In this document: positions 42,597-63,035 of the stretch, piece after piece
Numbering within the stretch: position 1 is the first letter of the stretch
Layout of the letters: every line of letters starts with the position of its first letter
Assembly: GCA_041671565.1 (NCBI GenBank)
Contig: JBAZBH010000002.1
Span: forward strand, 32,000-95,999
Source: Patescibacteria group bacterium
Lineage (GTDB): Bacteria > Patescibacteriota > Patescibacteriia > JACRDY01
Direction: 5' to 3'
DNA: 64,000 nucleotides
Notes under the pieces: model-generated
Database searches by the model: none
What the model was told of the DNA's origin: nothing
The model's input: the letters and a program-made list of their open reading frames with translations, nothing else
Translations under genes and position numbers: made by a program

Positions 42597-42721
42597 CCGG
42601 CTGTCCGGCCACTTTTATTCACAGCACGACACGCGGCGGGGAACCATTCCCCGCCGCCTTTTTAATATAAAAGTCCAGAGTCCAGAGTCCAGAGAAAGCC
42701 AAGAGTTTAGAGTTCAGAGCG

Positions 42722-45149: not shown

Positions 45150-45300
45150 ACAGGGAATTTCTAATTCTTAATTTAAAATTTTTAATGAATTTATAATGTT
45201 TAATTCTTAATTTTAATTTCCAACCAAGTTCGTGGTTATTTAAAATTAAACCTTAAAAATTGATTAAAAATTAGGAATTTTAAATTAAAAATTATTGAGC
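45150..45300. repeat. AT-rich palindromic element (copy 2 of the 7106-7253 family)
   Basis: aattcttaatttaaaatttttaatgaatttataatgtttaattcttaatt ... ccaaccaagttcgtggttatt ... aaaattaggaattttaaattaaaaatt. Confidence 0.8.
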
Positions 45301-45441: not shown

Positions 45442-45467
45442 GTAACGCTTGACGCAGCTTCGCGTCT
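45442..45467 (+). promoter_or_regulatory. candidate ECF-type promoter (GTAAC-N16-CGTCT) abutting the sigma-factor start codon
   Basis: -35-like gtAAC 45442-45446, -10-like CGTCt 45463-45467, 16-nt spacer; ATG of sigma gene 6 nt downstream (possible leaderless transcript or autoregulation). Confidence 0.35.
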
Positions 45468-45473
45468 AATTTA

Positions 45474-46037
45474 ATGCCTAATCTCTTAGCTCAGAAATTC
45501 TTGCTTTTGAAGCTAAAAACTAAGGATCCAGAGGCCTTCGGTCAGTTTTATGATATCTATGTAAAGAAAATTTACCGCTTCATTTACTTTAAGGTTTCCT
45601 CAAAGGAAGAAGCGGAAGATCTAACTGCTGAGGCATTCTTGAAAATTTGGGAGTACATTTTTGCCGGCAAGAAAGTTGATAACCTCAATGCCTTCACTTA
45701 TCAAGTGGCGCGCAATCTGGTGATTGATTTTTACCGGCAAAAAAGCCAGAAAACTATCGCGCTCGAGTCGGAAGAAATTCTTGCCGAGATTCCCGACCCG
45801 ACTGCGGGCGCGGAAAAAATCGCCGAGCTGTGGCTGGACCAGGAAGAGCTGGCAAAATACCTCAAACAACTGAAAGACGAATATCGCGAAATTATCATTT
45901 TGAAATATCTGGACGAGCTGAGCGTTTCGGAGATTGCCAAGGTTCTTGATAAAACCAACGGCAATGTCCGAGTGCTCGCGCACCGAGCGCTGACGACTCT
46001 AAAAAATCTAGCGGAAAAAAATCACCGCCATGAATAA
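45474..46037 (+). CDS. ECF-type RNA polymerase sigma factor (sigma-70 regions 2 and 4)
   Basis: region 2 (FYDIYVKKIYRFIYFKV...AEDLTAEAFLKIW; NLNAFTYQVARNLVIDFYR) and region 4 HTH (LDELSVSEIAKVLDKTNGNVRVLAHRALTTLK). Confidence 0.85.
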   Translation: MPNLLAQKFLLLKLKTKDPEAFGQFYDIYVKKIYRFIYFKVSSKEEAEDLTAEAFLKIWEYIFAGKKVDNLNAFTYQVARNLVIDFYRQKSQKTIALESEEILAEIPDPTAGAEKIAELWLDQEELAKYLKQLKDEYREIIILKYLDELSVSEIAKVLDKTNGNVRVLAHRALTTLKNLAEKNHRHE

Positions 46038-47139
46038 CCACGAGTTGTTAAAACAATTAAAATCTTTAGAAACCGGCCAGCCGGACATCGAATGGGTGTC
46101 GCGGAACCGGGAGATTTTGTTATCCCAAATCCGCTCCCAGCAAGCGAAGCCAGTTGAGCTGTTTTCCCGCGCCGGCGCCAACTTCAGCTGGCAGGCGGTG
46201 CAGGTGCTTTTCCCGGTTCGGCTCGCGGTCCGCGCCGTGACGGCCGTCGGTTTGGTTATCGTCTTTCTTTTGGGCAGTTCCGTCACTTCAGCCTGGGCGG
46301 ACCGCAGTCTGCCGGGCGATCTTCTCTACAATGTTAAAATCACCACCGAGAAAGTCCAGTCCGCCATTACCACTTCAGCGGAAGATAAAACCAAGCTGGA
46401 AATGGAGTTTGCCGGCAAGCGGCTCGATGAGATCAAACGGCTGAGCGCCGAACAGCCAACTAGCGGCCGGCAGAAAGAAATCAAAAACACCCTTGCCAGC
46501 TACAAAAAAAATCTCGAGCAAGTTAATAATAATTTAGCCCAATTGGCCGGCCAGGGCAACGCGGAAAAAACGGCTGAATTGGCAACGCTGGTTAACAGCC
46601 AAACCACCGGTTATTCAAAATCACTGGCCGAGAGCGAGCAGGCGATAAAATCCCAAAGCAATGACTTTGGCCAGCAGGTCAAAGAAGTTTTGGATTTGTC
46701 TTTGGCGACAACCGATCAGGCGCTGGAAATTATGGTTGAGAAACAACAGCTCGCCGGCGCGGCGCTTTCACCGGAGGCGATCAAGCAGATTATTGGCGAA
46801 CGGATCAATAAAGCCAAAGAAAAATTAACTGCTTTAAAGCAAGAAGCGAATAATCAAGAAAACGCTTTATCAGTTATTAGCGCCAAGGCCCAGCGGCAGG
46901 CGGCTGCCACCCGTTTAGCCACCGCGCGGGAAGAATTAGCTTTAAGCGGTCAAAGTTTGGAATCAGCCCAGGCGGCTTTGGCGGGCAATGATTTAACTTC
47001 CGTTTTAAATAAATTAAAAGAGGCGAGCCAGGCGTTACGGGACGCCGAGGCGGCTTTGACTGAGCCGGTTTTGCCGGCGGTTGAGGTTGAAGGCGCGTCG
47101 GTGATAAAAGAAGTGGAGCCGGCGGAGACCTTGAAGTAG
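46030..47139 (+). CDS. putative anti-sigma factor: membrane-anchored, extracytoplasmic coiled-coil domain (DUF5667-like)
   Basis: start overlaps sigma stop (ATGAATAA coupling); single TM (AVTAVGLVIVFLLGSSVTSAWA); long Ala/Glu/Gln/Lys-rich helical ectodomain. Confidence 0.5.
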   Translation: MNNHELLKQLKSLETGQPDIEWVSRNREILLSQIRSQQAKPVELFSRAGANFSWQAVQVLFPVRLAVRAVTAVGLVIVFLLGSSVTSAWADRSLPGDLLYNVKITTEKVQSAITTSAEDKTKLEMEFAGKRLDEIKRLSAEQPTSGRQKEIKNTLASYKKNLEQVNNNLAQLAGQGNAEKTAELATLVNSQTTGYSKSLAESEQAIKSQSNDFGQQVKEVLDLSLATTDQALEIMVEKQQLAGAALSPEAIKQIIGERINKAKEKLTALKQEANNQENALSVISAKAQRQAAATRLATAREELALSGQSLESAQAALAGNDLTSVLNKLKEASQALRDAEAALTEPVLPAVEVEGASVIKEVEPAETLK

Positions 47140-47351
47140 TTAGCAAATTCTTGGTTCGCCGGCGTTTCGGCAAATAAAGAGTTTGGTGACTAGTTCACCG
47201 ATTAATGAAGCTGTGAAGACCCGCAAGGTCGATTCGCCGTCAGGCGAAGTTTTCACAATTAAAAAAATAAAAGCTATTTCGGCTCGAGGTTAGCGCATCC
47301 CAATTGGGCGGTAATCTTGACTGAAAGGCTTAATAAAGAAAAAAGGTTATT

Positions 47352-50300
47352 ATGACAAATTTAATTAAAAAAGGTTTCACTGTCTCAGTGGTGGTCGCGA
47401 CCATTTTCTGGGCGGTGGGATTAGCGGCTTTATTGCCGCTGGGCGTTTCTGCCGCGGCGGTGGAAGGCGATTTGATCAAAATGAGTGGTCTGTCGTCCGT
47501 CTACTACTATGCCAATGGCAAACGCTATGTTTTCCCGAATGAAGCCACTTACTTCTCATGGTATAGTGATTTCTCCACGGTGAAAACTCTCACCCAGGCC
47601 GAATTACAAGTGATTCCTTTGGGTTCCAATGTGTTGATGCGCGCCGGCACCAAGCTGGTGAAAATCACCACTGACCCCAAGGTTTACGCGGTCGGCCCGA
47701 ATGGCGTTCTACATCATGTCGATAGTGAAGCTCGCGCGGTTACTTTATACGGAGCCAACTGGGCTCAGCGGGTAGTTGATGTTTCCGATGCTTTCTTCAC
47801 CAACTACACCACCGGTTCGGCGCTCGCTTCCAATGTTCATCCGGAAGGCGCGTTGATCAAATACGCGGGTGCGGCTGATGTTTATTATGTGAATGCTAGC
47901 GCTCAGAAACAAAAATTGACGACTGATGCGATGACGGCTAATCGCTTGAAATTGAGCGATGTCCTCACCATCTCTGATTCGTTGGTTTATACTTCCGGCG
48001 CTGATATTACCGGCGCGGTTAACGCCATGCGGGATACTTCCCAAACTGGCGGCACCGGCGGTGTTATCACTCCGACTGTTGGTTCTTTGAATGTTGCTTT
48101 GGCTTCTGACACCCCAGGCTCGACCTCGGTGCCTTACTTGGCCAACAATGTTCCGTTTACCTATGTTAACTTGTCAGCTGGCTCCGATGGCGCCACTGTC
48201 ACGGGTGTTAAAGTCACTCGCGTTGGCCTAGGTAGCGATGCTAACTTTGGCTCCGTCAAATTGTTTTTGGACGGCGTGCAGGTTGGCAATTCCCAATCTT
48301 TGAACTCCTCTCACATTGCTTCTTTCAGCGGTTTGTCCATCAGCGTTCCGGCTAACAGCACCAAGAAATTGGTTCTCGCCGGCACGATTGCGGCTACCGG
48401 CACGGCGGTTCAGGGTCATTTGCTTGGCTTAAGTTTAGCTTCAGCTAGCGATGTCACCTCCACTGCTTCGATTGCCGGCACCTTCCCGGTGCAGGGCAAC
48501 CAGATGACTATTGCCAATGTTACCATTGGTACGGCCACCTTGGATGACGGCAGCTTGGGCACTCGCAATGACAGCAATTTGACTGTTGATACTGATGCCG
48601 CCGATGTGCGCTTCACGCAAGTGAAGATCACCGCTTCTAACGAAGATGAAAAGGTGACGCAGATCACCGCGGTTCGCAACGGCACGGCCGGCGACAGCGA
48701 TGTCAAAGATATCAAGCTTTATGATGACACCCACGGCGTGCTTTTGGGCACCGTCGCTGGTTTAACCAATGGCAGAGCGGTTTTCAGTAACCTCAATGTC
48801 TTGGTGAAGAAAGGCGAATTCGTGGAATTGTCAATTAAGGCTTCCTTAAATGGCGGCGCTGGCCGCACTTTGACTTTTGACCTGCATGATGGTGTGGCTT
48901 ACACCATGATGATTGTTGGTCAATCTTATGGCTTTGGTATTACCCCGACCGCTGGCACTTTCACCAGCTTAATGACAGCTCAGGGCATTAACCAAGGTTA
49001 TTTGACCATTAACAAGAGCGCGCTTACTCCGGCGACTGGCAACATTCCGCTCGGTGGCTCTGCGGTCACCTTAGCCGCTTTTGACTATAAAGCGGTAGGT
49101 GAGCCGATCAATGTTACTTCTACTCAGTTGACCTTTACTCCAGCTAATAGCCAATCCGCTACTACCGGTCGGGCAGCTGACTACACCAACATTGGTTTGT
49201 ATGACGCTAACGGCGTCCTGGTGGCTGGCACCAAAGATGGTGCTACCACCACCGTTAATACTGCCGAAACCTTTACCTTTACTGACGCTTATACAGTTCC
49301 GGCCGGCACTTCGGTTTATTATGTTAAAGCCAATATTTCTTCTTCGGTTTTGGCCGCAGAAAAAATAACGGTTTCCATGCCGGCTAACACGATTACTGCT
49401 AAGGGCGGCAATTCCGGCAAAACCACTTATACCACTTCAGCTGTCGGCGTTACCCCTCCGTCTGGAGCGGTATCGGCCAACCAAATGACGATTTTGGGCG
49501 GCGCTTTGGTGGTGGTGACGGCGGCGACTCCGGTCGCGGCCTCGGTCGTGGCCAACGCACAGGATCAAACTTTCGCTTACTTTGATCTGAACGCGACTGG
49601 CGGCGGCGAAGACGCGAAAATTTCCAGCGTGATAGTGACTGACACTTTGGGCAACAGCGCGGCTTATGCCGACTTGCTCAACTTGGAACTTTGGGGCGAC
49701 CCGGATAATTCTGACAGCGATGTTCAGAATATCGCGTTGGCCACCTCCAATGCCACAGCCACGAACGCCAACACGGTTACCTTCACCTTTATGACTCCGC
49801 TTCGGGTGAGTCATTCTTCAATCTCTCGCTTAACCTTAAAGGCTGATGTGGCCTCGGCCCCGGCGGATACGACTACTGCGGTGGGCACCCACACCTTTAA
49901 GATTGATGATTCGCCGGATGTTGTCGCCACTGGCTGGACTACCGGTCAGACGATTGGTGAAACTTACTCCGGTACGGGTCAAGCCATGGGCACGCAGGCG
50001 GCTGGTTTGTTGAAGGTTACTCCTTCAGCGGATATGGCGGCCGCGGCTCAGTATGTTGCCGGCACGACTGGCAATGCGATGATGTCTTACAAATTTGAGG
50101 CTTCATATGAAGATGTCTCAGTGACTTCCCTGTATATTGCCACCACCAGCGCGACTGCCAGCGCTAATGTGGCTCGGGTGAAGTTATACCTCAATGGCAC
50201 TCAGATCGGCGCCGCCAGCGGTTACACGCTGAACGCCGGTGGTGATGCTAATGTCGTCTTTGGCGCGACGGAATTCGTGGTGCCGAAAGACGGTTATGCC

Positions 50301-51050
50301 ACTTTGGCCATTAAGGTTGATTTGGCTGACAAGACTCAGTTGACTGATGCCGCGACCCTCGAAATCGGGTTGGGCGATGTCAACGGCGATGATTCTACTT
50401 GGACCACTCAAAACGGCACCGCGGTGGCTGGCAGTTACCAGATCGTCGCGACCGGTAAGTCTTCCGGTAGTGTTATTACTGAAGCTAATATCGACACTTT
50501 GGGCACTGGCGCCGGTAACATTTCAGCTTCCAAAATCATGTACCTCTATGATGGCGTGTTGACTGTTTCTTTGAACAGCGCCTCGCCTTCTGGCACGGCC
50601 ACTGCTGGCACTGCCAAAGAGGTCTTGCGTTTGAACCTGACTGCGACCGGTGACACCATTACGGTTGTCAACTTGGAAATCGCTAAGGGCGGCACTTGTA
50701 CCGTCACTGGTACGACAGCGGCTTACTTGAAGAGCGCTGACCTCGCCACCACTTATGCGACTTTCGCGGCTGGCACTGCTTGGTTAAATAACGCTCACCT
50801 TGATGTTCTCACCCATGATTCCGACGGCGCGTTTGATACCGCCTTGGAAATCGCTCCGGGTGAAACTAAGACCATTGTCTTGATCGGCGATGATGCGGCT
50901 TGCACCACTGCTAATCAGACTTTGCAATTCACGGTCGGCGGCGTTACCCACACCACTTCCGGCGTCTCTTGGAAGAATGCTTCCGCCAATACGGTGGATG
51001 CCGCTTTGACCAAGAACTTGCCGGTGGCTGGCGGTTCGCTAGTCTTCTAA
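47352..51050 (+). CDS. giant (1232 aa) secreted cell-surface protein, Thr/Ala/Gly/Val/Ser-rich, beta-rich repeat domains (S-layer/adhesin-like)
   Basis: signal peptide (FWAVGLAALLPLGVSAAA); N-terminal triplicated ~50-aa module shared with 52368..53840; very low charged-residue content; intrinsic terminator downstream. Confidence 0.5.
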   Translation: MTNLIKKGFTVSVVVATIFWAVGLAALLPLGVSAAAVEGDLIKMSGLSSVYYYANGKRYVFPNEATYFSWYSDFSTVKTLTQAELQVIPLGSNVLMRAGTKLVKITTDPKVYAVGPNGVLHHVDSEARAVTLYGANWAQRVVDVSDAFFTNYTTGSALASNVHPEGALIKYAGAADVYYVNASAQKQKLTTDAMTANRLKLSDVLTISDSLVYTSGADITGAVNAMRDTSQTGGTGGVITPTVGSLNVALASDTPGSTSVPYLANNVPFTYVNLSAGSDGATVTGVKVTRVGLGSDANFGSVKLFLDGVQVGNSQSLNSSHIASFSGLSISVPANSTKKLVLAGTIAATGTAVQGHLLGLSLASASDVTSTASIAGTFPVQGNQMTIANVTIGTATLDDGSLGTRNDSNLTVDTDAADVRFTQVKITASNEDEKVTQITAVRNGTAGDSDVKDIKLYDDTHGVLLGTVAGLTNGRAVFSNLNVLVKKGEFVELSIKASLNGGAGRTLTFDLHDGVAYTMMIVGQSYGFGITPTAGTFTSLMTAQGINQGYLTINKSALTPATGNIPLGGSAVTLAAFDYKAVGEPINVTSTQLTFTPANSQSATTGRAADYTNIGLYDANGVLVAGTKDGATTTVNTAETFTFTDAYTVPAGTSVYYVKANISSSVLAAEKITVSMPANTITAKGGNSGKTTYTTSAVGVTPPSGAVSANQMTILGGALVVVTAATPVAASVVANAQDQTFAYFDLNATGGGEDAKISSVIVTDTLGNSAAYADLLNLELWGDPDNSDSDVQNIALATSNATATNANTVTFTFMTPLRVSHSSISRLTLKADVASAPADTTTAVGTHTFKIDDSPDVVATGWTTGQTIGETYSGTGQAMGTQAAGLLKVTPSADMAAAAQYVAGTTGNAMMSYKFEASYEDVSVTSLYIATTSATASANVARVKLYLNGTQIGAASGYTLNAGGDANVVFGATEFVVPKDGYATLAIKVDLADKTQLTDAATLEIGLGDVNGDDSTWTTQNGTAVAGSYQIVATGKSSGSVITEANIDTLGTGAGNISASKIMYLYDGVLTVSLNSASPSGTATAGTAKEVLRLNLTATGDTITVVNLEIAKGGTCTVTGTTAAYLKSADLATTYATFAAGTAWLNNAHLDVLTHDSDGAFDTALEIAPGETKTIVLIGDDAACTTANQTLQFTVGGVTHTTSGVSWKNASANTVDAALTKNLPVAGGSLVF

Positions 51051-51098
51051 AGTTCGGTACCAAGTTCGTCAGCGTCTTGTTTAGTCAAGCTGACAAAA

Positions 51099-51127
51099 AC
51101 CACCCGGCATGTGCTGGGTGGTTTTTA
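51099..51127 (+). terminator. rho-independent terminator
   Basis: cacccggc-atgt-gctgggtg stem followed by gtttttatttggg. Confidence 0.75.
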
Positions 51128-51159
51128 TTTGGGAGAAATTAGGCGTTGGCGTTTGATGT

Positions 51160-51375
51160 TTAAACCAAAAGCCAGGGCTAGAAGTTCAAAGCTTAAAATC
51201 CAAAGTTCAAATCAAGTTCAAAAATCAAATGCTATTCTTGGCTAACCGTGAAGCCACCTTTTGGCATTTGAACTTGATTTGAACTTTGAATCTTTGGATT
51301 TTGAACTTCTAACCATGGTTGAGAGTTTCAACGCCGATTATTGACATTCTTGAATCCTAAATCTTAAATCTATCT
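51160..51375. repeat. nested palindromic element (ttcaaag inner, gatttaa-type outer right arm)
   Basis: aagttcaaagcttaaaatccaaagttcaaatcaagttcaaaaatcaaatg ... tttgaacttgatttgaactttgaatctttggattttgaac ... cattcttgaatcctaaatcttaaatc. Confidence 0.8.
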
Positions 51376-51446
51376 TCAGTCTAGACAAACCCCCTTTTAT
51401 TTTGTAGAATAGGAAGTGCTAATAAAGTTAATTAGTAAGCCCAATT

Positions 51447-52112
51447 ATGTCAGAAATCATTAAAAAACGCTGGCCGCTTATTTTAGTAGGGGTGTTTTTT
51501 ATTGTTTTAATTGGCACTTTTGTCTGGAAATCCAATATTAAAGAGACGGAAGTGGACTGGGTTTCAACTGATAAATTAACTTTGACTGAGACAGAAAAAG
51601 CCAAATACGAAGAAACCGTGGTTAAACTGGAGCAAAACCAAAAAGACCCGGAAGCGCTGGTTAATCTCGCGCGCCTGCGGAACTATGGCGGCGATCTGGA
51701 GGGCGCGATTAAGATTTATTTGGAAGCCTTAAAACTCCGGCCGAATGACACGCTGATTCTCAACAACTTGGGCGACGCTTATTACTCACTCGGCGACTAC
51801 AAAAAGTCCGAAGAAATGTATCTCAAAATTATTGAAAATAATCCCAAGTGGATTAGCGCTTACCGCGAATTGGTTAACATTTATCATTATAAGCTGAAAG
51901 ACAAATATACCACCGTGCCGGCGCTTTTGGAACGCGGGCTGTCCGCCGACCCAGGGTCAAGCGAAGATTTTTACGCTCTGCTTGGGATTTATTATGAAGA
52001 TGTCGGCGATATCGCCAATGCCATTCTGTATTATGAAAAAGTTTTGGCGATTAACCCGCAGAATATCGGCGCGCGGTCGGCTTTGGACGCTCTCCGGCCG
52101 GTCAAGTTTTAA
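51447..52112 (+). CDS. TPR-repeat protein with N-terminal TM anchor
   Basis: several 34-aa TPR units (e.g. LGDAYYSLGDYKKSEEMYLKIIENNPKWISAYRE). Confidence 0.75.
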   Translation: MSEIIKKRWPLILVGVFFIVLIGTFVWKSNIKETEVDWVSTDKLTLTETEKAKYEETVVKLEQNQKDPEALVNLARLRNYGGDLEGAIKIYLEALKLRPNDTLILNNLGDAYYSLGDYKKSEEMYLKIIENNPKWISAYRELVNIYHYKLKDKYTTVPALLERGLSADPGSSEDFYALLGIYYEDVGDIANAILYYEKVLAINPQNIGARSALDALRPVKF

Positions 52113-52159
52113 TCATCACCAGTTGGGTCGGTTATCCGCGGTTCGTTAATGATTGAAGT

Positions 52160-52300
52160 TTTTCTTATTAACCATGCGGCTGAATAGCGATGCGAATGCT
52201 ACAAATTACATGCGAATACTACAAATGATACGAATTTACTGGTCTTTATTCGTTGCATTCGTATGTAATTCGTAGCATTCGCATCGCTTCCAATCGGGTA
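52160..52300. repeat. palindromic element 'gcgatgcgaatgctacaaatt' (full copy)
   Basis: gaatagcgatgcgaatgctacaaattacatgcgaatactacaaatgatacgaatttactgg ... cgttgcattcgtatgtaattcgtagcattcgcatcgcttccaatc. Confidence 0.8.
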
Positions 52301-52367
52301 AAGAAAATGAATCCCGTGGATTATAAATAATTGTCAATAAATAATCAGCGTGAACTAAAACAAAAAT

Positions 52368-53840: not shown

Positions 53841-53876
53841 TTTGGCGGACGGTTTAATTTAGCCAATTTTTACTAA

Positions 53877-53897
53877 GGCCCCCGAAAGGGGGTTTTT
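53877..53897 (+). terminator. rho-independent terminator
   Basis: ccccc-gaaa-ggggg stem followed by ttttt. Confidence 0.8.
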
Positions 53898-53899
53898 AG

Positions 53900-54130
53900 G
53901 GAGATTTAAGATTTAGGATTTAAGAATAAATGCCCAATGACCAAGCTCCAATGACCAATCAATGTCCAATGACCAATGTCCAATTACCGACTTTTGGCAT
54001 TTGAGCTTGATTGGACATTGGGATTTGGTTATTGGACATTTTAACCGCTGTAAGAAGTTTAAACACTAATTATCGACATTCTTAAATCTTAAATCCTAAA
54101 TCTTAAATCTGTCTCTCCCTCCCCTTGGAC
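53900..54130. repeat. nested palindromic element (gatttaa outer / aatgtccaat inner)
   Basis: gagatttaagatttaggatttaagaataaatgcccaatgaccaagctccaatgaccaatcaatgtccaatgaccaatgtccaattacc ... ttgattggacattgggatttggttattggacatt ... cattcttaaatcttaaatcctaaatcttaaatc. Confidence 0.85.
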
Positions 54131-54162
54131 TTTTCCCCAAATTTAAGCTAAAATAACGCTAT

Positions 54163-56244
54163 ATGTTTAACCGCCAACCTAAGAAAATCACCGTCTTCGC
54201 CTTAATTTTTTTGTTTGTTTTTGGCCTAATCAGTCCGGCGCTCGCGCTCAAGCCTGATGACCCGGATTATTTTCTCGAGTGGCAGATAGAGAAGATGAGT
54301 TTGCCCCTAGCTTGGGATTATACGACCGGTTCGCCGGCAGTGGTGGTGGCGGTACTGGATACCGGCGTGGATGTTAAACACCCGGATTTGGCGGACAATA
54401 TCTGGGTTAATACCGGCGAAATTCCGGGCGACGGCATTGATAATGACGGCAACGGGTATATTGATGATGTTAACGGTTATGATTTTGTAGATGAAGACGC
54501 TAATCCGGCGCCGGATTTTTCTAAAGGGTATAACCCGCTGGCGCTGAGTCACGGCACGATGGTGGCCGGCTTGATCGGCGGGGTGGGTAACAATCTGCGT
54601 GGCCTGGCGGGTGTGGCCTGGCAAGCAAAAATCATGCCGCTGCGGATTTTGGACAACTGGGGCATGGCGTCCGTGCCGCCGACCTTGGCAGCGGTGCAAT
54701 ACGCGATTGATAACGGCGCCGAGGTGATTAATTTAAGCTTTCAGGGTGAATTTCCGCTTTTAGAGTTTCAACAGATTTTAGAAAAAGCCTACCGCGCCGG
54801 TGTGGTGATTGTGGCGGCGGCCGGCAACGGCAATCACGGGGTTAATGGTTTTGACTTGGATCAGACGGAGTTTTACCCGGTTTGCTATCAAACGGCCGAT
54901 GGGCAAAATATGATTATTGGCGTGGGCGCCACCAATCAGGCTGATGAGCGGTCGGACTTTTCCAATTACGGCAAGTGTGTGGACATTATGGCGCCGGGCG
55001 AAGAAATTTATTCCACCGAAGCCTACCGCGGCCCGAACACTGATTTAGAAACTTATTACGGCGGCGACTGGCGGGGGACATCTTCGGCCGCGCCACTGGT
55101 TTCCGGCGTGGCGGCTTTGATTAAGTCGATCAACCAGAATTTTTCGCCGGATCAAATACTTAATTTTATCACTACTACCGCCGATCCTTTGGGTTATGAT
55201 TATAGTAGCACCCGCTATGCCGGCAAATTGGGAGCCGGCCGGGTTAATGCCGGCGCGGCGGTGAAAGCCGCGGCCGAGTATAGCCGCGGCCACGCCGAGG
55301 AATTAGCCTGGCAGGCGGCGGGTTGGCCGCGGGCTTATGTTACCCCTGGGTTAGTGGTAGCGCCGATTGGCGCCGGAGCGCCGGAAGTGCGGGTGTTAAC
55401 TAATTTGGGTGTGGTAAAAAATAAATTTTTGGCTTATGAAACTGATTGGCGGGGCGGCGTTAATTTAGCCTTAGGCGACTTCAACCAGGACGGCAAAAAA
55501 GAAATCGTCACAGCGCCGGGCGCGGGCCACGAGCCGGCAGTGCGGATTTTCAGTCAGACGGGTACGCCGTTAACCGAGTTTTTGGCTTATGACGCCACTT
55601 ACCGCGGCGGCGTTAAAGTCGCCGTCAAAGACATTGACGCTGACGGCCAGGCGGAAATCGTGACCGCGCCGCAAACTGCCGGCAAAGAAGCGGTTAAAAT
55701 CTTTACCCAGAAAGGAGAAGTCAAATATCAAATTAAAATTAATTCCAAGAATTTTGTCGGCGGAGTTAATCTCGCTCTCGGCGATTTAGATTTAGACGGC
55801 AAGGCAGAAATTGTGCTCTCGTCGGCTAAAGGCGGCGCGGGAGCGGTTCAAATTTGGACTTATCAGGGCAAGCTAATGCGGCAGTTTAGCGTGGCGGACA
55901 AGAAATTCACCGGCGGTCTCAGTTTGGCTGTTGGCGATATTGACGGCGACAGCCGGCCGGAGATTATTACCGCGCCGGAAAGCGGCGCTGAACCGCGGGT
56001 CAAAATTTTCAACCAAGAAGGTAAGTTGAAGAAAGATTTTCTAGTTGGCGAGAAGGCCTATCTGGGTGGGCTAACTTTGGCAACGGGCGATTATAACGGC
56101 GATGGCTGGTTAGACCTGGCGGCGAGCCAAGCGAGCGGCGATCCGGTAGTTAATTTAGTCAACGGCCTTGGCCAAATTGAAGCCAATTTTAGCGTTTTTA
56201 GTCAAGGTTATACGGGTGGAGTAAATGTTGCTATAATAGATTAA
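54163..56244 (+). CDS. subtilisin-like (S8) serine peptidase fused to C-terminal FG-GAP repeat propeller
   Basis: signal peptide; catalytic motifs VAVLDTGVD (Asp), HGTMVAGLIGG (His), GTSSAAPLVSGVAALI (Ser); C-terminal repeats GDFNQDGKKEIVTAPGAG, DIDADGQAEIVTAP, GDLDLDGKAEIV, GDIDGDSRPEIITAP, GDYNGDGWLDL. Confidence 0.88.
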   Translation: MFNRQPKKITVFALIFLFVFGLISPALALKPDDPDYFLEWQIEKMSLPLAWDYTTGSPAVVVAVLDTGVDVKHPDLADNIWVNTGEIPGDGIDNDGNGYIDDVNGYDFVDEDANPAPDFSKGYNPLALSHGTMVAGLIGGVGNNLRGLAGVAWQAKIMPLRILDNWGMASVPPTLAAVQYAIDNGAEVINLSFQGEFPLLEFQQILEKAYRAGVVIVAAAGNGNHGVNGFDLDQTEFYPVCYQTADGQNMIIGVGATNQADERSDFSNYGKCVDIMAPGEEIYSTEAYRGPNTDLETYYGGDWRGTSSAAPLVSGVAALIKSINQNFSPDQILNFITTTADPLGYDYSSTRYAGKLGAGRVNAGAAVKAAAEYSRGHAEELAWQAAGWPRAYVTPGLVVAPIGAGAPEVRVLTNLGVVKNKFLAYETDWRGGVNLALGDFNQDGKKEIVTAPGAGHEPAVRIFSQTGTPLTEFLAYDATYRGGVKVAVKDIDADGQAEIVTAPQTAGKEAVKIFTQKGEVKYQIKINSKNFVGGVNLALGDLDLDGKAEIVLSSAKGGAGAVQIWTYQGKLMRQFSVADKKFTGGLSLAVGDIDGDSRPEIITAPESGAEPRVKIFNQEGKLKKDFLVGEKAYLGGLTLATGDYNGDGWLDLAASQASGDPVVNLVNGLGQIEANFSVFSQGYTGGVNVAIID

Positions 56245-56255
56245 GCCTTAAACTT

Positions 56256-56669
56256 GTGGATAATGAGGTTAAAATAAAAGTTCCGCTCGGGCCGCAGCTG
56301 GTCAAATTTTGTTTGGTCGGCTTTGCTAACGCCACAGTGGATTTCAGTATTTATCTCAGCTTGACGCGTAATTTCCAATTTTGGGCCAAGTGGTATTTAG
56401 CCGCCAATATTATTGCCTTCGCCTTTGCCAGCTTGTTCAGCTTCATAGTCAATAAGCATTGGACTTTTGGCGCCGGCAAAAGCCGCAATTACTGGCAGGA
56501 ATATTGCCGTTTTATGGCAGTCAATTTGGTGGCGCTATTGATTGTGGAAGCGTCGTTGTTCGCGGCGGTGGATTTATTCGGCGTTTATGATTTGTGGGGC
56601 AAGTGTTTTGGCATTTTACTGTCAATCGCTTGGAGCCTGACCGCGCACCGGCGCTGGACCTTTAAATAA
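56256..56669 (+). CDS. GtrA-family membrane protein (polysaccharide/lipid-linked sugar translocation accessory)
   Basis: GTG start; KFCLVGFANATVDFSIY ... VNKHWTF ... HRRWTF, 4 TM, typical GtrA-like. Confidence 0.7.
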   Translation: MDNEVKIKVPLGPQLVKFCLVGFANATVDFSIYLSLTRNFQFWAKWYLAANIIAFAFASLFSFIVNKHWTFGAGKSRNYWQEYCRFMAVNLVALLIVEASLFAAVDLFGVYDLWGKCFGILLSIAWSLTAHRRWTFK

Positions 56670-56752
56670 GTTGAAAGTTGAAAGTTATAAAGTTGAAAGT
56701 AAAATTCGACTAACTTTATAACTTTTAACTTTATAACTTTATAACTGCTTTT
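56670..56752. repeat. short AT-rich palindrome ('gttgaaagttataaag' units)
   Basis: gttgaaagttgaaagttataaagttgaaagt ... actttataacttttaactttataactttataact. Confidence 0.75.
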
Positions 56753-57751
56753 ATGTCTACCAACAAAAAAAACATTGTGGTCTTGGGTGGGGCTGGGTTC
56801 CTCGGCTCGCATCTGTGCGATTATTTGATTAAGGAAAATCAAGTTATCTGCGTTGACGATTTTACTTCGGGTACGCAAGCGAATATCGACCATCTGCTCG
56901 CCAACCCCAATTTTGAGTTTATCAAGCATGATATTGTCGAGCCGCTGGATTTGGACGGCTTTCCCGAGCTGGATAAATTCAAAGTCAAAGTCCAGGGCGT
57001 GGCGGAAGTCTATAATCTCGCTTGCCCGACTTCGGTCAAGAATTTTGAGACTGACCGCATCCGGACTTTAGAAACCAACGGTTGGGGCACGCGGAACGGT
57101 TTGGAAATAGCGCGGAAATATAACGCTAAATTTCTCCATTTTTCTTCCTCGGTGGTTTACGGCGGTCGGACCGATGATGTTAAATTTTTTCAGGAAGATT
57201 ATTGGGGTCATGTTAATTTTCTTTCGCCCCGCGCTTGTTATGATGAAGGCCGGCGGTTTGCCGAAACCGCGGTGGTGACTTACCGCCAAGTTTACGGGCT
57301 AGACACCAAGATCGTCCGCGTTTTCCGCGCTTACGGCGCGCGGATGAAATTGTTTGATGGCCAGATGCTGCCGGATTTTATCACTGACGCGCTAGAGGGA
57401 AAAGATTTAGTGATCTACGGTGACAAAACATTTTCTTCGTCGCTCGTTTATGTCGCTGATGTGATTGATGGCGCGGTCCGTCTGATGGCCGCGGAAGAAT
57501 CCGGGCCAATCAACCTGGGCGGGATTGATGACCATAATATCTATGGAGTGGCCGAGTTGATTATTAAGTTGACCGACTCAGCTTCCAAGATTGTCTTTAA
57601 AGATCCGCTTCTATTTATGACGCCCTTGGGACTACCCGACATTACCCTCGCTAAAGAAAAACTAGGCTGGCTGCCGGTGGTGCCGCTCCAGGAAGGTTTG
57701 CAAAAAACTATTGACTACACTCGGGCGGAAAAAGGCAAAGTCGGCGCGTAG
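56753..57751 (+). CDS. NAD-dependent sugar-nucleotide epimerase/dehydratase, UDP-glucuronate decarboxylase (UXS)-like
   Basis: GGAGFLGSHLCDYL Rossmann motif; NFEFIKHDIVEPL and Y-x3-K region resemble UDP-xylose synthase. Confidence 0.7.
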   Translation: MSTNKKNIVVLGGAGFLGSHLCDYLIKENQVICVDDFTSGTQANIDHLLANPNFEFIKHDIVEPLDLDGFPELDKFKVKVQGVAEVYNLACPTSVKNFETDRIRTLETNGWGTRNGLEIARKYNAKFLHFSSSVVYGGRTDDVKFFQEDYWGHVNFLSPRACYDEGRRFAETAVVTYRQVYGLDTKIVRVFRAYGARMKLFDGQMLPDFITDALEGKDLVIYGDKTFSSSLVYVADVIDGAVRLMAAEESGPINLGGIDDHNIYGVAELIIKLTDSASKIVFKDPLLFMTPLGLPDITLAKEKLGWLPVVPLQEGLQKTIDYTRAEKGKVGA

Positions 57752-57785
57752 GTAATTACTAATGACTAATTACTAATGACGAATT

Positions 57786-58475
57786 ATGAATCAGGGGTGG
57801 GAGAAAAATGGCGTGTTTGTGGTAGTGCCGGCGTGGAACGAGGCGAAAAATATCAGCGTGGTTTTAAGCGATCTGAAAAAATATTATCCGGCAGATAATA
57901 TCGTGGTGGTGGACGACGGTTCGGCTGACGAGACTTACAATTTGGCGCTGGCGAACGGTGTGGCGGTTTTGCGCCATCCGCTTAATCGCGGCCAAGGCGC
58001 GGCCCTTCAGACCGGCACGGATTACGCGCTCAGCCGCGGCGCCGAGATAATTGTCCATTTTGACGCTGACGGCCAGCATCAAGCCGAAGAAATAGCGGAA
58101 TGGATCAAGCCGGTTGCTGCGGGTGAAGTGGAAGTGGTTTTGGGTTCGCGGTTTTTGGGCAAAACAGCGAAGAATTTGCCGCTCAGCAAGAAGATATTTT
58201 TTAAGCTGATTATTCCCTGGCACAATCTTTTTACCGGCCTAAAGCTTACTGACCTGCATAATGGCACTAGGGTTTTGTCTCGCCGCGCCGCTGAAAAGAT
58301 TCGGATCACTCAAGATGAAATGGCGCACAATTCGGAAATCCAAAGCCAGATTGCTAAATTCAGATTGCCTTACCGTGAAGTGCCGGTGGAGATTATTTAC
58401 AACCGTTACGGCCGGGGAGCGAAGACGGCCATGAAGATTTTAAAGGATTTAATCAAAAAGAGTTTAGTGGGATGA
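57786..58475 (+). CDS. GT2-family glycosyltransferase (GtrB / polyprenyl-phosphate sugar transferase-like)
   Basis: VVVPAWNEAKNI, VVVDDGSAD, DADGQH motifs of GT-A/GT2. Confidence 0.85.
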   Translation: MNQGWEKNGVFVVVPAWNEAKNISVVLSDLKKYYPADNIVVVDDGSADETYNLALANGVAVLRHPLNRGQGAALQTGTDYALSRGAEIIVHFDADGQHQAEEIAEWIKPVAAGEVEVVLGSRFLGKTAKNLPLSKKIFFKLIIPWHNLFTGLKLTDLHNGTRVLSRRAAEKIRITQDEMAHNSEIQSQIAKFRLPYREVPVEIIYNRYGRGAKTAMKILKDLIKKSLVG

Positions 58476-58479
58476 TTTA

Positions 58480-58640
58480 GGACTAAATAATAAATCATAA
58501 GTTCAAAATTATAAATAACAAATAAATTATAAATTCAGAAATCTTAAGCAATAAACGGTTCGGATTAGGAGTTTAGAATTTATTGATTTAATGCTTATGA
58601 TTTATTTGTTATTTATAATTTTGGATTTAGAATTTAAATT
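58480..58640. repeat. AT-rich palindromic intergenic element
   Basis: aataaatcataagttcaaaattataaataacaaataaattataaattc ... gaatttattgatttaatgcttatgatttatttgttatttataattttgg. Confidence 0.8.
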
Positions 58641-58643
58641 TTT

Positions 58644-58985
58644 ATGGCCATCAAAATAATTCTTCTCCTTTTCATCCTCTTCGTGGTTCTGCGGACCGCG
58701 GTCCGTTTCTATAAAAAAGAACTCCGCGGGCGGGAGCTGGCGAGTTGGCTGGTGTTTTGGGCACTGGTCAGCGCGGCGGTCGCCTTGCCGCAGGGCGCGG
58801 ACAAACTGGCGACTTTCGTCGGGGTGGAGCGCGGCGCGGACCTGCTCGTTTATATCTCAGTTTTGGTTTTATTTTATCTGGTGTTTAAGGTGCTGGTGAA
58901 ACTGGAAAAAGTGGAGGGGGAAATAACCAAGGTAGTGCGAGAAACGGCGCTGAATAATCATGACAATAAAAACATTAAAACATAA
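58644..58985 (+). CDS. small membrane protein, DUF2304-like (commonly paired with GT2 genes)
   Basis: 113 aa, two TM helices with conserved basic loop (RFYKKELRGRE); position between GT2 genes. Confidence 0.45.
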   Translation: MAIKIILLLFILFVVLRTAVRFYKKELRGRELASWLVFWALVSAAVALPQGADKLATFVGVERGADLLVYISVLVLFYLVFKVLVKLEKVEGEITKVVRETALNNHDNKNIKT

Positions 58986-59045
58986 AAACATTAAAACCGG
59001 ATCAAGTTTTGTTTTAATGTTTTAATGTTCTGGTGTTTTAATGTT
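58975..59045. repeat. 'aacattaaaac' palindromic element
   Basis: cataaaaacattaaaaccggatcaagttttgttttaatgttttaatgttctggtgttttaatgtttttt; second copy 60125-60210. Confidence 0.8.
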
Positions 59046-60114
59046 TTTTATGATCAATCGTGTCGCCGTCATCATCGCCCCAAATTGGCATGATTACGCG
59101 GAAAAATATCTCCAAGGTTGCATTGACAGCGTGCGGGCGCAAAAGACCAGCGCGACTTTTAAGGTTTTTCTTACCGATAATGAATCAACTCCGGAGTCGG
59201 TGGCATTATTAAAAAGAATCGCGCCCGAGGTTGAAATCACAACTAACAAAACCAACGATGGCTTTGCCAAGGGCAATAACGATTCAATAAAAAAGGCTTT
59301 GGCCGAAGGGTTTGAATATTTGGTTTTGTTAAACATGGATACGGAAGTCGAGCCGGATTTTTTGGAAAAACTGCTTCAGGCCGCGGCAACGGCGGAAAAT
59401 TGGGGGGCGATTCAATCACGAATCATGCTTTATCCGGAAAAAGATAAGATTAATAGTCTAGGAAACAGCCTGCATTATTTAGGCTTTGGTTTTTCGGCCG
59501 GCGGCTATCAGGATATTGGAGTATTTAAGGAGCTTCCATTCCGAGAAATCAAAGGATATTTTTCCGGTTCCTCAGTATTACTTCGCAAAGATGTTTTGGA
59601 AAAGACGGGATTATTTGATGAAAATTTCTGGATGTATCATGATGACTTAGATCTCAGTTGGAAAATAACTTTGGCCGGCTACAAAGTTTATCTGGCGCCG
59701 CGTTCAGTGATTTATCATAAATATCAGTTTGTCAAAAGCATCAAGCAGTATTTCTGGATGGAGCGGAATCGTTTCATTTTTTTGTTTACCGATTTCCACC
59801 CGGTAACTTTAATATTAATCGCGCCGATGCTTTTGGCGATGGAACTCGGTTTATTCCTCTTCGCGATCAAGGGCGGATTTTGGAAAGAAAAGCTGCGGGT
59901 TTACGCCTGGTTTTTAAAGGGCCAGAGCTGGGATTATCTTAGAGAACGCCGTTGGCGGATCAATAATCTAAGAAAAGTTAAAGACAAAGATTTGGTTAAA
60001 TATTTAAGCTCAGAAATCCAGTTTCAAGAGATTAATAACCCGCTGCTTAAATATATCGGCAATCCGGTGATGAAAATATATTGGCAAATTGTTAAGAGGT
60101 TGATTGTTTGGTAG
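59041..60114 (+). CDS. GT2-family glycosyltransferase with C-terminal membrane segment
   Basis: GT-A fold (VIIAPNW..., LLNMDTEV, DxD-like DDLD), ~2 TM near C-terminus. Confidence 0.8.
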   Translation: MFFMINRVAVIIAPNWHDYAEKYLQGCIDSVRAQKTSATFKVFLTDNESTPESVALLKRIAPEVEITTNKTNDGFAKGNNDSIKKALAEGFEYLVLLNMDTEVEPDFLEKLLQAAATAENWGAIQSRIMLYPEKDKINSLGNSLHYLGFGFSAGGYQDIGVFKELPFREIKGYFSGSSVLLRKDVLEKTGLFDENFWMYHDDLDLSWKITLAGYKVYLAPRSVIYHKYQFVKSIKQYFWMERNRFIFLFTDFHPVTLILIAPMLLAMELGLFLFAIKGGFWKEKLRVYAWFLKGQSWDYLRERRWRINNLRKVKDKDLVKYLSSEIQFQEINNPLLKYIGNPVMKIYWQIVKRLIVW

Positions 60115-60124
60115 GTGGGGGCAG

Positions 60125-60210
60125 CGAATATTAAAATATAAAAACATTAAAACAGTTTCCGGCGCCGTCTCTTTGTTTTAATGTTCTTGTGTTTTAATGT
60201 TTTAATGATT
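60125..60210. repeat. 'aacattaaaac' palindromic element (copy 2)
   Basis: aaaatataaaaacattaaaacagtttccggcgccgtctctttgttttaatgttcttgtgttttaatgttttaatg. Confidence 0.8.
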
Positions 60211-60212
60211 TT

Positions 60213-61355
60213 ATGAAGATCGCCCAAGTAGTTTGCACTTTTCCTCCCTATAAAGGCGGTATGGGTAATACCGCTTATCATTATAGTTTGGAGCTCGCTA
60301 AACTCGGCCACGCGGTGACGGTTTTTACGCCGCATTTTAAGGATCGGCTGGTTAATTTCCAAAATTTTACCATCCGCGGCGTGGCGCCCTGGTTAAGCTA
60401 TGGTCTGGGCGCTTGGAGTCCGCGACTGGCCTGGGAACTCAGCGACTTTGATATTATCCAGTTGCACTATCCGTTTTTTGGCGGCGCTTTGCCGCTTTGG
60501 TGGCTCAAGAAAATCAAGCCCCGGAAAACCAAACTGGTTTTACTTTATCAGATGGATGTTTTGGGTCAGGGCATTTGGCGCCGGGTTTTTAACTGGCACG
60601 CCAAATATCTAATGCCGGGGATTATCCGGGCGGCCGACAAAATCATTATCACTTCGCGCGACTACGCCGCCAGTTCTCGTTTGGCGCCGTGGTTGAGTAT
60701 TTTTCCTGATAAGTTTGTGGAAATCCCGCTCGGCGTGGATACGGCGGTTTTTCAGCCCACGCCGCCTGACAGCGAATTAATAAAAAAATATCAGTTGAAG
60801 CCAGGCGAAAAAGTAATTTTATTTACGGCCGCCTTAGACACCGCGCATTATTTTAAGGGCCTGGATATTCTTCTCGCGGCAACGGCTACACTAAAAAATC
60901 CGGCGCGGTTGGTAGTGGTGGGTAAGGGCGACCTCAAAGATTTTTATGAGCGGCGAGCCGAAGAGTTGGGGCTAAAGGATCGAGTGACTTTTGCCGGTTA
61001 TTTGAGCGACCGGGATTTGGCGCGGCATTATAACCTGGCTGATGTTTTTGTCTTGCCGTCGGTTAACCGTTCCGAGGCTTTTGGCTTGGTTTATTTGGAA
61101 GCCGGCGCTTGCGCCAAGCCGGTGATTGGCTCGGACTTGCCCGGCGTGCGGACGGTGATCGATGATGGGCAGACCGGCTTCTTAGTCCAGCCGGGCGACG
61201 CCGCTGATTTAGTTAGTAAGCTGGAAAAGATTTTAGCCGATGGCGAGTTGGCAAAACGGCTGGGCCAGGCCGGGCGGGAAAAGGTGGTGGCGAAGTATAA
61301 TTGGGGGAATATTGCTAAGGAGATCGAGATAATATATAAACAAATTAAAAACTAA
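60213..61355 (+). CDS. GT4-family glycosyltransferase
   Basis: SEAFGLVYLEAGACAKPVIGSDLPGVRTVI (E-x7-E). Confidence 0.85.
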   Translation: MKIAQVVCTFPPYKGGMGNTAYHYSLELAKLGHAVTVFTPHFKDRLVNFQNFTIRGVAPWLSYGLGAWSPRLAWELSDFDIIQLHYPFFGGALPLWWLKKIKPRKTKLVLLYQMDVLGQGIWRRVFNWHAKYLMPGIIRAADKIIITSRDYAASSRLAPWLSIFPDKFVEIPLGVDTAVFQPTPPDSELIKKYQLKPGEKVILFTAALDTAHYFKGLDILLAATATLKNPARLVVVGKGDLKDFYERRAEELGLKDRVTFAGYLSDRDLARHYNLADVFVLPSVNRSEAFGLVYLEAGACAKPVIGSDLPGVRTVIDDGQTGFLVQPGDAADLVSKLEKILADGELAKRLGQAGREKVVAKYNWGNIAKEIEIIYKQIKN

Positions 61356-61460
61356 AAGATAAAAGAGAAAAACGAAAAACAAAGACTAAAAACTTAAAAC
61401 CTCCCCGTTTTTACTTTTGCGTTGTTGTCTTTCGTTTTTATCTTTAAGTTTTTATCTTAC
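61356..61460. repeat. AT-rich palindromic intergenic element
   Basis: aaaagataaaagagaaaaacgaaaaacaaagactaaaaacttaaaa-cctccccg-tttttacttttgcgttgttgtctttcgtttttatctttaagtttttatctt. Confidence 0.8.
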
Positions 61461-61462
61461 TT

Positions 61463-63031: not shown

Positions 63032-63035
63032 CGGC

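Follow-up and report, generated by a model that had tools for sequence, protein, structure and literature searches.

The locus described here lies at positions 45442-61355 of a 64-kb stretch of DNA, called the window in the following, from a Patescibacteria group bacterium (contig JBAZBH010000002.1 of assembly GCA_041671565.1). All of its genes are on the plus strand; they encode, from upstream to downstream, a sigma factor of the extracytoplasmic function (ECF) type, a membrane protein of putative anti-sigma function, a giant secreted protein of 1232 amino acids (aa), a membrane-anchored protein with tetratricopeptide repeats (TPR), a secreted protein of 490 aa, a subtilase with FG-GAP repeats and a run of sugar genes (Table 1). 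All open reading frames (ORFs) of the original prediction, an earlier reading of the same DNA, were recovered at the same coordinates and on the same strand with an ORF list and domain scans. It is likely, in our opinion, that the stretch represents the surface layer (S-layer) gene neighbourhood of a bacterium of the Patescibacteria (candidate phyla radiation, CPR), of the Falkowbacteria/Uhrbacteria type, with the giant protein as its coat protein.

Table 1. Positions of features in the window and in related loci (L numbers); +, plus strand; -, minus strand.
Feature	Sequence	Position	Strand	Basis or remark
Putative ECF-type promoter motif GTAAC-N16-CGTC	window	45442-45466	+	8 nucleotides (nt) upstream of sigma start codon
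ECF-type sigma-70 family factor	window	45474-46037	+	Pfam Sigma70_r2 and Sigma70_r4_2
Anti-sigma-like membrane protein	window	46030-47139	+	Pfam DUF5667 (PF18915), E=3e-12
Structured leader of coat gene	window	47209-47260	+	P1 / AAGGUCG bulge / P2
Putative S-layer protein, 1232 aa	window	47352-51050	+	signal peptide, anchor module, linker, six immunoglobulin (Ig)-like domains
Coat protein, signal peptide, aa 1-34	window	47352-47453	+	hydrophobic N-terminal segment ending VSA/AA
Coat protein, triple-repeat module, aa 35-232	window	47454-48047	+
Coat protein, six Ig-like domains, aa 245-1232	window	48084-51047	+
Intrinsic terminator after coat gene	window	~51095-51126	+	14-bp stem and U-run
Sigma-70-like promoter of TPR gene	window	51382-51410	+	TAGACA-17-TAGAAT
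Membrane-anchored TPR protein	window	51447-52112	+	Pfam TPR families; N-terminal membrane helix
Secreted 490-aa protein	window	52368-53840	+	the giant protein's anchor module forms the C-terminal part (53304-53837)
Intrinsic terminator after 490-aa gene	window	~53873-53899	+	CCCCC-GAAA-GGGGG, then U-run
Subtilase (S8) with FG-GAP, secreted or membrane-tethered	window	54163-56244	+	Pfam Peptidase_S8, E=1e-51
GtrA-like	window	56256-56669	+	Pfam/NCBIfam
UXS-like short-chain dehydrogenase/reductase (SDR)	window	56753-57751	+	best PDB relative human UXS1
PpgS-like GT2	window	57786-58475	+	NCBIfam, below cut-off
DUF2304	window	58644-58985	+	Pfam
GT2	window	59041-60114	+	Pfam/NCBIfam
GT4	window	60213-61355	+	Pfam/NCBIfam
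Polysaccharide/envelope cluster, outside the locus	window	28827-44579	+	Pfam
Small HTH_17 (excisionase/MerR-like) DNA-binding protein	window	44776-45072	-	PF12728, E=2e-10; divergent from sigma gene
AT-rich hairpins	window	44621-44702, 45156-45294, 51158-51332, 52186-52288, 53960-54040, 56674-56740
AT-rich hairpins	window	58491-58636, 58966-59048, 60127-60214, 61336-61464, 63035-63106
Anchor-module genes	L009	9621-10121, 12700-13266
Anchor-module genes	L010	20474-21037, 23396-23752
Anchor-module genes	L011	15751-16125, 19325-19888, 22255-22797
Big_5/CarboxypepD_reg protein	L001	1770-7262	-
Big_5/CarboxypepD_reg protein	L024	1463-7900	-
Big_5/CarboxypepD_reg protein	L025	1606-7980	-
Big_5/CarboxypepD_reg protein	L026	295-8055	-

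The giant protein had been described as secreted and rich in Thr, Ala, Gly and Val, which is correct: besides the N-terminal signal peptide it contains 13.7% T, 13.5% A, 9.9% G and 9.6% V, and these residues together with Ser account for 55% of the sequence; the isoelectric point (pI) is 4.76 and only 2 Cys are present. An acidic, Cys-poor composition rich in Thr, Ala, Gly and Val is typical of S-layer proteins. No match was obtained in Pfam or NCBIfam, a profile search against PDB sequences returned none, and no known wall-binding domain (SLH, CWB2, LysM, PG_binding_1) could be recognized. An AlphaFold2 (AF2) model, based on an alignment of 47 sequences, had a predicted local distance difference test (pLDDT) score of 89 and consisted of an alpha/beta module of 198 residues, a disordered Gly/Thr linker of 11 residues and, from there on, beta structure only. 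In the family alignment six segments of about 160 residues were mutually homologous (hhalign probability 92-99%), and profile comparison showed no relation of the N-terminal module to these Ig-like segments. More than 1245 homologues sharing words with the protein were found, nearly all of 1170-1310 aa, none of them named and all from metagenome-assembled genomes (MAGs) of Patescibacteria; a full HMMER scan yielded 4932 clusters at 50% identity, of which 1062 had E<=1e-30, and the family is restricted to the Patescibacteria. It includes members from Nealsonbacteria and Minisyncoccales (1278 and 1281 aa), which align to the window protein only from residue 244 and carry PG_binding_1 at their N-terminus. 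A fragment of 732 aa from a public representative library (P0222) is 100% identical to residues 501-1232 of the coat protein; given this identity, the same or a near-identical genome appears to be public already, as a fragment.

The supplement of a preprint (bioRxiv 10.1101/2024.05.28.596244) reports on a putative S-layer protein of Patescibacteria, which came from a scan of a Nealsonbacteria genome; its six Ig-like assembly domains form a left-handed spiral, and hexagonal pyramids with a unit cell of 18.5 nm were predicted for it. The proteins listed there have 1131-1274 aa, for example A0A1G2EN61 (Nealsonbacteria), A0A1F5NRV7 (Doudnabacteria) and GMX59286.1 (Parcubacteria), with A0A0G1WWP5 and A0A1F4NSF7 as further accessions; homologues ranked among the top five signal-peptide genes by expression in two Minisyncoccaceae, according to expression data from another study, which also noted peptidoglycan-binding domains in those proteins (PMC10936435). 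The window protein has the features of this predicted family, namely a Sec signal peptide followed by a cell-anchoring domain, and six tandem Ig-like domains, and it is regarded here as a member, the two being set together by description, size and taxa. The suggestion of an S-layer-like surface protein is thus supported by family, six-Ig architecture, composition and the match to a predicted S-layer protein; the comparison of composition and repeats, which had been proposed as a check, showed the acidic, Cys-poor character typical of S-layer proteins and six homologous Ig-like repeats. The coat protein would be exported by the Sec pathway, as the signal peptide indicates, the N-terminal module with its three units resembling PlyCB and EccB repeats would probably hold it on the cell wall, and the flexible linker would display the six homologous Ig-like domains, which could tile into a hexagonal lattice by analogy with the AlphaFold-multimer predictions for matching proteins.

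A module in three copies, shared between the giant and the 490-aa protein, had been noticed before. Both parts of this observation hold: residues 324-489 of the 490-aa protein match residues 49-220 of the giant (BLASTP E=2e-9; profile-profile probability 99.9%), and the triplication is backed by the secondary structure of the AF2 model and partly by hhalign (R1-R3 93%, R2-R3 70%, R1-R2 weak). The beta-rich N-terminal part of the 490-aa protein showed no significant kinship to the six coat domains in profile comparison. When modelled alone, the module reached a pLDDT of 95.8 and a predicted template modelling score (pTM) of 0.88, and it resembled, weakly, PlyCB, EccB and wall-binding domains or repeats of endolysins. 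In other classes (Nealsonbacteria, Minisyncoccales) PG_binding_1 stands in its place, and cupredoxin domains are joined to its first two repeats elsewhere in the Patescibacteria. This exchange, the presence on a second secreted protein, the cupredoxin fusions and the likeness to PlyCB and EccB suggest that the module is probably a wall anchor. Additional genes with anchor modules, with 48-61% identity to residues 39-226 of the giant, occur downstream of the cassette in three related loci (L009, L010, L011); since these genes begin with the module, those genomes would hold a whole set of anchor-bearing proteins. The TPR protein, whose repeats were confirmed by Pfam families and are predicted to lie outside the membrane, is probably an assembly factor, and the 490-aa protein, having the same anchor, probably a wall-bound protein associated with the S-layer.

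For an assessment of gene order, related loci were collected by a search with an alignment of 11 sequences, and the proteins of the window were mapped on them; 23 independent loci with 31-57% identity of the giant protein were obtained. All 22 loci for which upstream sequence exists have a sigma gene directly before the giant gene, and in all annotated loci the sigma gene is followed by a membrane ORF, which could be recognized as DUF5667 in about 16 (Pfam record or tblastn). Downstream of the giant gene a TPR homologue was present in about 19 loci and a homologue of the 490-aa protein in 17; a divergent small HTH_17 gene upstream of the sigma gene is usual, being found in most related loci. 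Seven loci (L002, L010, L011, L018, L021-L023) have a block of GT4, GHL15-FG-GAP, a protein of about 600 aa and GT4 upstream of the sigma gene. Among the 18 loci with enough downstream sequence, an S8 protease was located within 10 kb in five (L002, L004, L015, L023, L025) and a run of GT2 and DUF2304 in four; the others have ParAB, tRNA synthetases, ATP synthase or FtsEX as neighbours. The core cassette consists of sigma factor, anti-sigma-like protein, coat protein, TPR protein and anchored partner, and protease and sugar genes, since they adjoin it in few loci, are facultative neighbours. The synteny expected for the whole run is therefore strongly conserved as far as the 490-aa gene, but not for the S8 and sugar genes (about 5 of 18).

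Several peculiarities of the related loci may be mentioned. Several have an insertion immediately upstream of the sigma gene that encodes, in opposite orientation, a huge protein of 1830-2586 aa with Big_5 and CarboxypepD_reg domains; the one in L001 shows at its C-terminus a match to the 490-aa protein's anchor module. Two loci, L008 and L013 (CAZPYM010000001.1 and CAZPYM010000006.1), are near-identical whole cassettes on two contigs of one MAG, which may reflect strain heterogeneity or a duplicate arising in the assembly and not a genuine second copy. In L004 and L005 a homologue of the 23S rRNA intervening sequence protein stands between the anti-sigma-like and the coat genes (L004, 8784-9152). 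Several of the related MAGs are labelled Gammaproteobacteria, Saccharibacteria or Nanoarchaeota, probably erroneously.

The sigma factor contains regions 2 and 4 only, as in group 4 (Pfam, NCBIfam), in accordance with its earlier assignment to the ECF type; it scored 97.6 bits with the NCBIfam superfamily model TIGR02937 (cut-off 42.9), and no equivalog or subgroup model of NCBIfam was reached. The next gene had been taken for a membrane anti-sigma factor. Its single hydrophobic segment and its start, with an 8-nt overlap with the sigma stop, agree with this, whereas an anti-sigma domain was not detected in Pfam, and the protein has no Cys and hence no H-x3-C-x2-C zinc motif. A short, cytoplasmic N-terminus is followed by one membrane helix (aa ~59-85), the external DUF5667 and a tail rich in Ala, Gln and Glu. 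A literature search for DUF5667, or for anti-sigma factors in Patescibacteria, gave no results.

An exact search for GTAAC-N16-CGTCT gave one match on the plus strand of the window, at 45442-45467. The window and 14 of 22 related loci have the motif GTAAC-N15/16-CGTC 30-40 nt before the sigma ATG, usually as the sole plus-strand copy per locus (23 kb); it contains the AAC (-35) and CGT (-10) elements typical of ECF autoregulatory promoters. Its conservation in this place has the character of a phylogenetic footprint of an autoregulated ECF promoter, and the motif is probably the promoter by which the sigma gene would control itself. The original prediction had proposed a search for copies before the giant, 490-aa and S8 genes; even with 2 mismatches no plus-strand site was found before 47352, 51447, 52368 or 54163, and in the related loci the motif was never seen before the giant, TPR, 490-aa or S8 genes. 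Direct control of these genes from ECF promoters is consequently unsupported, the motif being kept before the sigma gene only. Sigma factor and DUF5667 protein would form an autoregulated pair, as the conserved motif suggests, probably with the envelope's condition as the signal sensed. Between the DUF5667 gene and the coat gene of the window no terminator was found, so that read-through into the coat gene is possible, and the pair may, speculatively, feed transcription into it by this route.

The subtilase had been recognized as an S8 protease fused to FG-GAP repeats, and this was confirmed (Peptidase_S8 with 176 bits, cut-off 21.8); the Asp, His and Ser motifs VLDTG, SHGT and GTSSAAP can be read in the translation, and the score with the mycosin equivalog was below its cut-off (171 versus 279 bits). 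The calls of GtrA, SDR, GT2, DUF2304, GT2 and GT4 likewise hold with Pfam and NCBIfam. The closest solved relatives of the UXS-like enzyme are human UDP-glucuronate decarboxylases (E=5e-75, versus 1e-28 for the next class). For the small GT2 the nearest model is PpgS, yet with 178 bits against an equivalog cut-off of 370. The genes have the appearance of a route via polyprenyl-phosphate sugar with a UXS-like enzyme, as had been proposed, and together with the S8/FG-GAP protein they may build and process extracytoplasmic glycoconjugates in this manner, the acceptor being the coat protein or a wall polymer. That protease and glycosylation genes are the coat protein's own is, on the other hand, unsupported by the counts in related loci given above.

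The larger cluster with Wzz, Wzy_C, GT4 and GHL15 upstream at 28.8-44.6 kb makes a wall glycopolymer no less likely as the product than an S-layer glycan. This cluster encodes a Wzz-like protein, two acidic lipoprotein-like proteins, a Wzy_C protein with 11 membrane segments, GT4, GHL15 with FG-GAP, a membrane protein of 609 aa and a further GT4; a second Wzy_C protein is encoded at 7254-8537. The two lipoprotein-like ORFs (31324-33291 and 41253-42596), with a Cys right after the signal peptide and no Pfam match, are rich in Thr and Asp and extremely acidic (pI 4.05), the one of 655 aa containing 21 Cys.

The explanation that sugar genes and upstream cluster together make a wall polysaccharide, possibly the ligand of the anchor, with the S8 enzyme as a general surface protease, is given only slightly less than an even chance. 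The sparse occurrence of S8 and sugar genes beside the cassette (5 of 18) speaks for it, as do the upstream Wzz and Wzy_C genes and the resemblance of the GT2 and DUF2304 pair to mycobacterial Rv3631/Rv3632, which decorate arabinogalactan, a wall polymer (PMC5389812). No UDP-glucose dehydrogenase, GT-C transferase or aminotransferase was found in the window, and without a GT-C transferase the two Wzy_C proteins are the sole candidates there for an oligosaccharyltransferase; Wzy_C proteins can, however, also be protein O-oligosaccharyltransferases (PglL, WsaB). A glycosylated coat is also favoured by the high content of Thr and Ser in the coat protein and by the order of the sugar run, which is kept right after the cassette at only 35-40% coat identity, being the same in L023 and lacking only GtrA in L002, L015 and L025.

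Between the DUF5667 gene and the coat gene a further conserved element was detected. Alignment of the regions upstream of the giant gene revealed a single invariant word, AAGGTCG(A), which the window and 20 of 22 loci have at 67-244 nt before the giant ATG; the copy at 47225 is the only one on the plus strand of the 64 kb. In the transcript, AAGGUCG (47225-47231) would lie in a 5' bulge between an outer stem P1, GUGAAGAC/GUUUUCAC, and an inner hairpin P2, UUCGCC-GUCA-GGCGAA. This fold fits 18 sequences, with P1 and P2 varying in sequence from locus to locus. Leaders scored 20-34 with our parser and 3-12 with shuffled flanks, the observed score being reached by 0-2 of 100 shuffles; in the structural alignment 95.6% of cells were paired (55% in shuffles), changes on both sides were present in 19 of 22 pairs of the stems, and covariation was 0.694, compared with 0.168 in shuffles and 0.08-0.13 in slid registers. 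The minimum free energy of the window leader was -19.1 kcal/mol (z -3.3), and single-sequence folds with ViennaRNA gave mostly the same fold with z from -1.3 to -3.3. Of 66 occurrences of AAGGTCG in 545 kb, the 14 with the best structure scores were all coat-gene leaders; in L004, with its extra gene between the anti-sigma-like and coat genes, the word stays with the coat gene. The double-sided changes, by which both stems are kept in 18 lineages, point to selection on a folded single strand.

A known small ribozyme or riboswitch was considered and rejected, Rfam giving no match at the gathering score and none up to E=10 for 47209-47260. A terminator was rejected, too, since no U-run follows P1.

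Most likely the leader would stabilize or process an abundant coat mRNA, or bind a regulator. Our tentative proposal, which we hold to be possible and well short of probable, is that P1/AAGGUCG/P2 constitutes an undescribed cis-RNA class of patescibacterial coat leaders, forming a feedback circuit with the ECF sigma/DUF5667 pair. If this is true, production of the envelope's most abundant protein would be adjusted through the circuit to the condition of the cell surface, an instance of regulation in a phylum with almost none characterized. Some results call for caution with the leader element. The pair counts were taken from an N-padded structural alignment made by our own parser, which biases the percentage of paired cells and is offset only in part by the shuffle control and the single-sequence folds; RNAalifold, given the leaders in a plain MAFFT alignment, returned only 3 pairs, all of P2, with the 3' halves out of register; and a search for sigma-70 -35/-10 elements upstream of P1 produced nothing consistent across loci, so that the promoter of the coat gene was not found. 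The last point would also suit a different explanation, in which AAGGTCG is a DNA operator, for example for the divergent HTH_17 protein, or belongs to a promoter of an unusual kind, with stems that are incidental or related to termination. The palindrome TCGA inside the word is in keeping with an operator, and so is the invariance of the word where the fold is absent: the loci of Nealsonbacteria and Minisyncoccales (L016, L019) have it twice, without P1/P2, and around the word in L004 the parser finds no such fold. Nevertheless, we think an operator rather unlikely, since both stems are kept through many double-sided changes, the word is always on the coding strand in constant register to the stems, and the missing U-run excludes a terminator.

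As to the coat protein itself, an S-layer function has to be weighed against that of a wall-anchored adhesin or host-attachment fibre, a string of Ig domains which would project from the episymbiont cell and form no lattice. The following points count against the S-layer interpretation. Foldseek with the whole coat model retrieved generic Ig chains only, at TM-scores <0.2; the assignment of the six-Ig family to a lattice is a prediction only; the preprint cites a lattice of 13 nm, determined by cryo-electron microscopy of unidentified Patescibacteria, in place of the 18.5 nm predicted for the six-domain protein (bioRxiv 10.1101/2024.05.28.596244); cluster look-ups of ten family members gave other accessions than those of the preprint, the likeness being one of description, size and taxa; and the DUF5667 protein is inferred to be an anti-sigma factor from gene overlap, position and single-pass topology. 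An adhesin would agree with the nature of the Foldseek matches, which are adhesin-type Ig chains (PrgB, antigen I/II, integrin legs), with the difference between predicted and measured lattice constants, and with the notion that Patescibacteria attach to hosts, highly expressed peptidoglycan-binding proteins having been read as attachment factors (PMC10936435). Yet length and six-domain count are near-constant over thousands of clusters, with one copy per locus, whereas the number of repeats is usually variable in adhesins; the gene keeps its place in the genome, along with a dedicated cassette, and hexameric lattices were predicted in the preprint for matching proteins. We thus regard an adhesin as improbable and retain the S-layer interpretation.

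The locus is not the uninterrupted run which it had been thought to be. Terminators follow the giant gene and the 490-aa gene, with folds of -25.4 kcal/mol (51075-51135; this one was not listed by a consensus scan) and -15.6 kcal/mol (53870-53905), and the intergenic gaps of 200-400 nt hold promoter-like sites of their own and long hairpins. Ordinary one-strand packing of a small genome, with genes unrelated beyond the sigma/anti-sigma pair, might be read from the several transcription units, from the plus-strand orientation of nearly all genes of the window and from the differing flanks of the cassette, but is very improbable, because the core cassette is retained while its flanks change and the anchor module is common to the giant and the 490-aa protein.

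The hairpins are a general feature of the region: nearly all intergenic gaps contain such long (40-130 nt), imperfect, AT-rich structures, the arms of which are made up of short degenerate sub-repeats. Their sequences all differ, with recurring words AAGTTCAAATCAAGTTCAAA at 44621 and 51188 and AAAACATTAAAACAT at 58966 and 60127. The folds reach -23 to -27 kcal/mol; there was no match in Rfam and no conservation in the three homologous loci checked. Directly after the GT4 gene a Cys-rich protein of 522 aa (61463-63031) has zf_Tbcl at both ends and many CxxC pairs. Upstream of the cassette, a gene for a 23S rRNA intervening sequence protein (42722-43090, minus strand; PF05635, E=1e-38) has the look of a small mobile gene. 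Housekeeping genes (NusA, GroEL, pyruvate kinase, ProRS, Lgt) are found in the first 25 kb of the window, as are a tmRNA gene (20668-21071, 107.6 bits) and a gene for tRNA-Asp (GTC) on the minus strand (23581-23654).

A large part of bacterial diversity belongs to the Patescibacteria, and their cell surface, the interface of these tiny episymbionts with their hosts, is known almost only from images. The locus very probably encodes an S-layer coat, with a conserved pair of regulators, helper proteins and an RNA element not described before, while sugar genes and protease are only loosely linked to the coat gene. It provides a concrete, conserved list of parts around a predicted coat protein: a new type of putative wall anchor, exchanged with PG_binding_1 between classes, a sigma/membrane-sensor pair which accompanies the coat gene in all loci examined, two conserved partners and a covarying leader RNA with an invariant word of 7 nt. 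These features could serve as markers for the coat gene in new genomes. An over-reading of the region is also corrected, since protease and glycosylation genes proved to be facultative and the ECF motif, searched with 2 mismatches, is absent before the coat gene. The coat-protein family itself was predicted previously in the preprint; the conserved cassette, the anchor type with its exchange for PG_binding_1 and the leader RNA appear to be new.

Comparisons with known systems are possible on several levels. The six-Ig S-layer protein of the preprint and the window protein both possess a signal peptide, a similar size (1131-1274 and 1232 aa) and six tandem Ig-like domains, and both are spread widely over patescibacterial classes; the window protein has its PlyCB/EccB-like triple-repeat module where members from Paceibacteria carry PG_binding_1. 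A gene neighbourhood, a sigma/anti-sigma pair or a leader RNA is not described for the S-layer protein of the preprint. S-layer loci with SLH (Bacillus, Paenibacillus) or CWB2 (Clostridioides difficile) domains follow a common logic with the present one, that is, a lattice protein and secreted proteins which share a three-fold anchor; here the sharers are the 490-aa protein and the cupredoxin fusions. In both cases anchors can be swapped between lineages, as reported for S-layer proteins of Firmicutes (bioRxiv 10.1101/2025.04.02.646754). There is no relation to SLH or CWB2 in sequence or Pfam, the fold recalling instead repeats of phage endolysins and EccB. To our knowledge, no ECF sigma/anti-sigma pair belongs to SLH or CWB2 S-layer loci.

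The regulator pair is similar to the SigW/RsiW, SigM and BldN/RsbN types in its two-domain sigma factor, overlapping genes and AAC...CGT self-promoter; it differs in that the partner has DUF5667 rather than a recognizable anti-sigma domain or zinc motif, and in that the conserved promoter copy is found only before the sigma gene itself. With mycobacterial PpgS (Rv3631)/Rv3632 and Arn-type pathways the sugar run has in common a small GT2 beside a DUF2304 membrane protein, a GtrA-like protein and a UXS/ArnA-like decarboxylase, a set suggestive of a polyprenyl-phosphate monosaccharide as the donor outside the membrane; differences are the score of the window GT2, far under the PpgS cut-off, and a window without GT-C transferase, aminotransferase and UDP-glucose dehydrogenase. 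Finally, in Lactobacillaceae a stem-loop in the 5' untranslated region of slpA stabilizes the S-layer mRNA and is associated with a long half-life and high expression (PMC10221546). Both leaders are stable stem-loops in the mRNA of an S-layer protein (here a putative one), but in the patescibacterial leader a large bulge enclosed by the stems holds an invariant word of 7 nt which is kept across classes, and this suggests specific recognition rather than simple protection of the 5' end.

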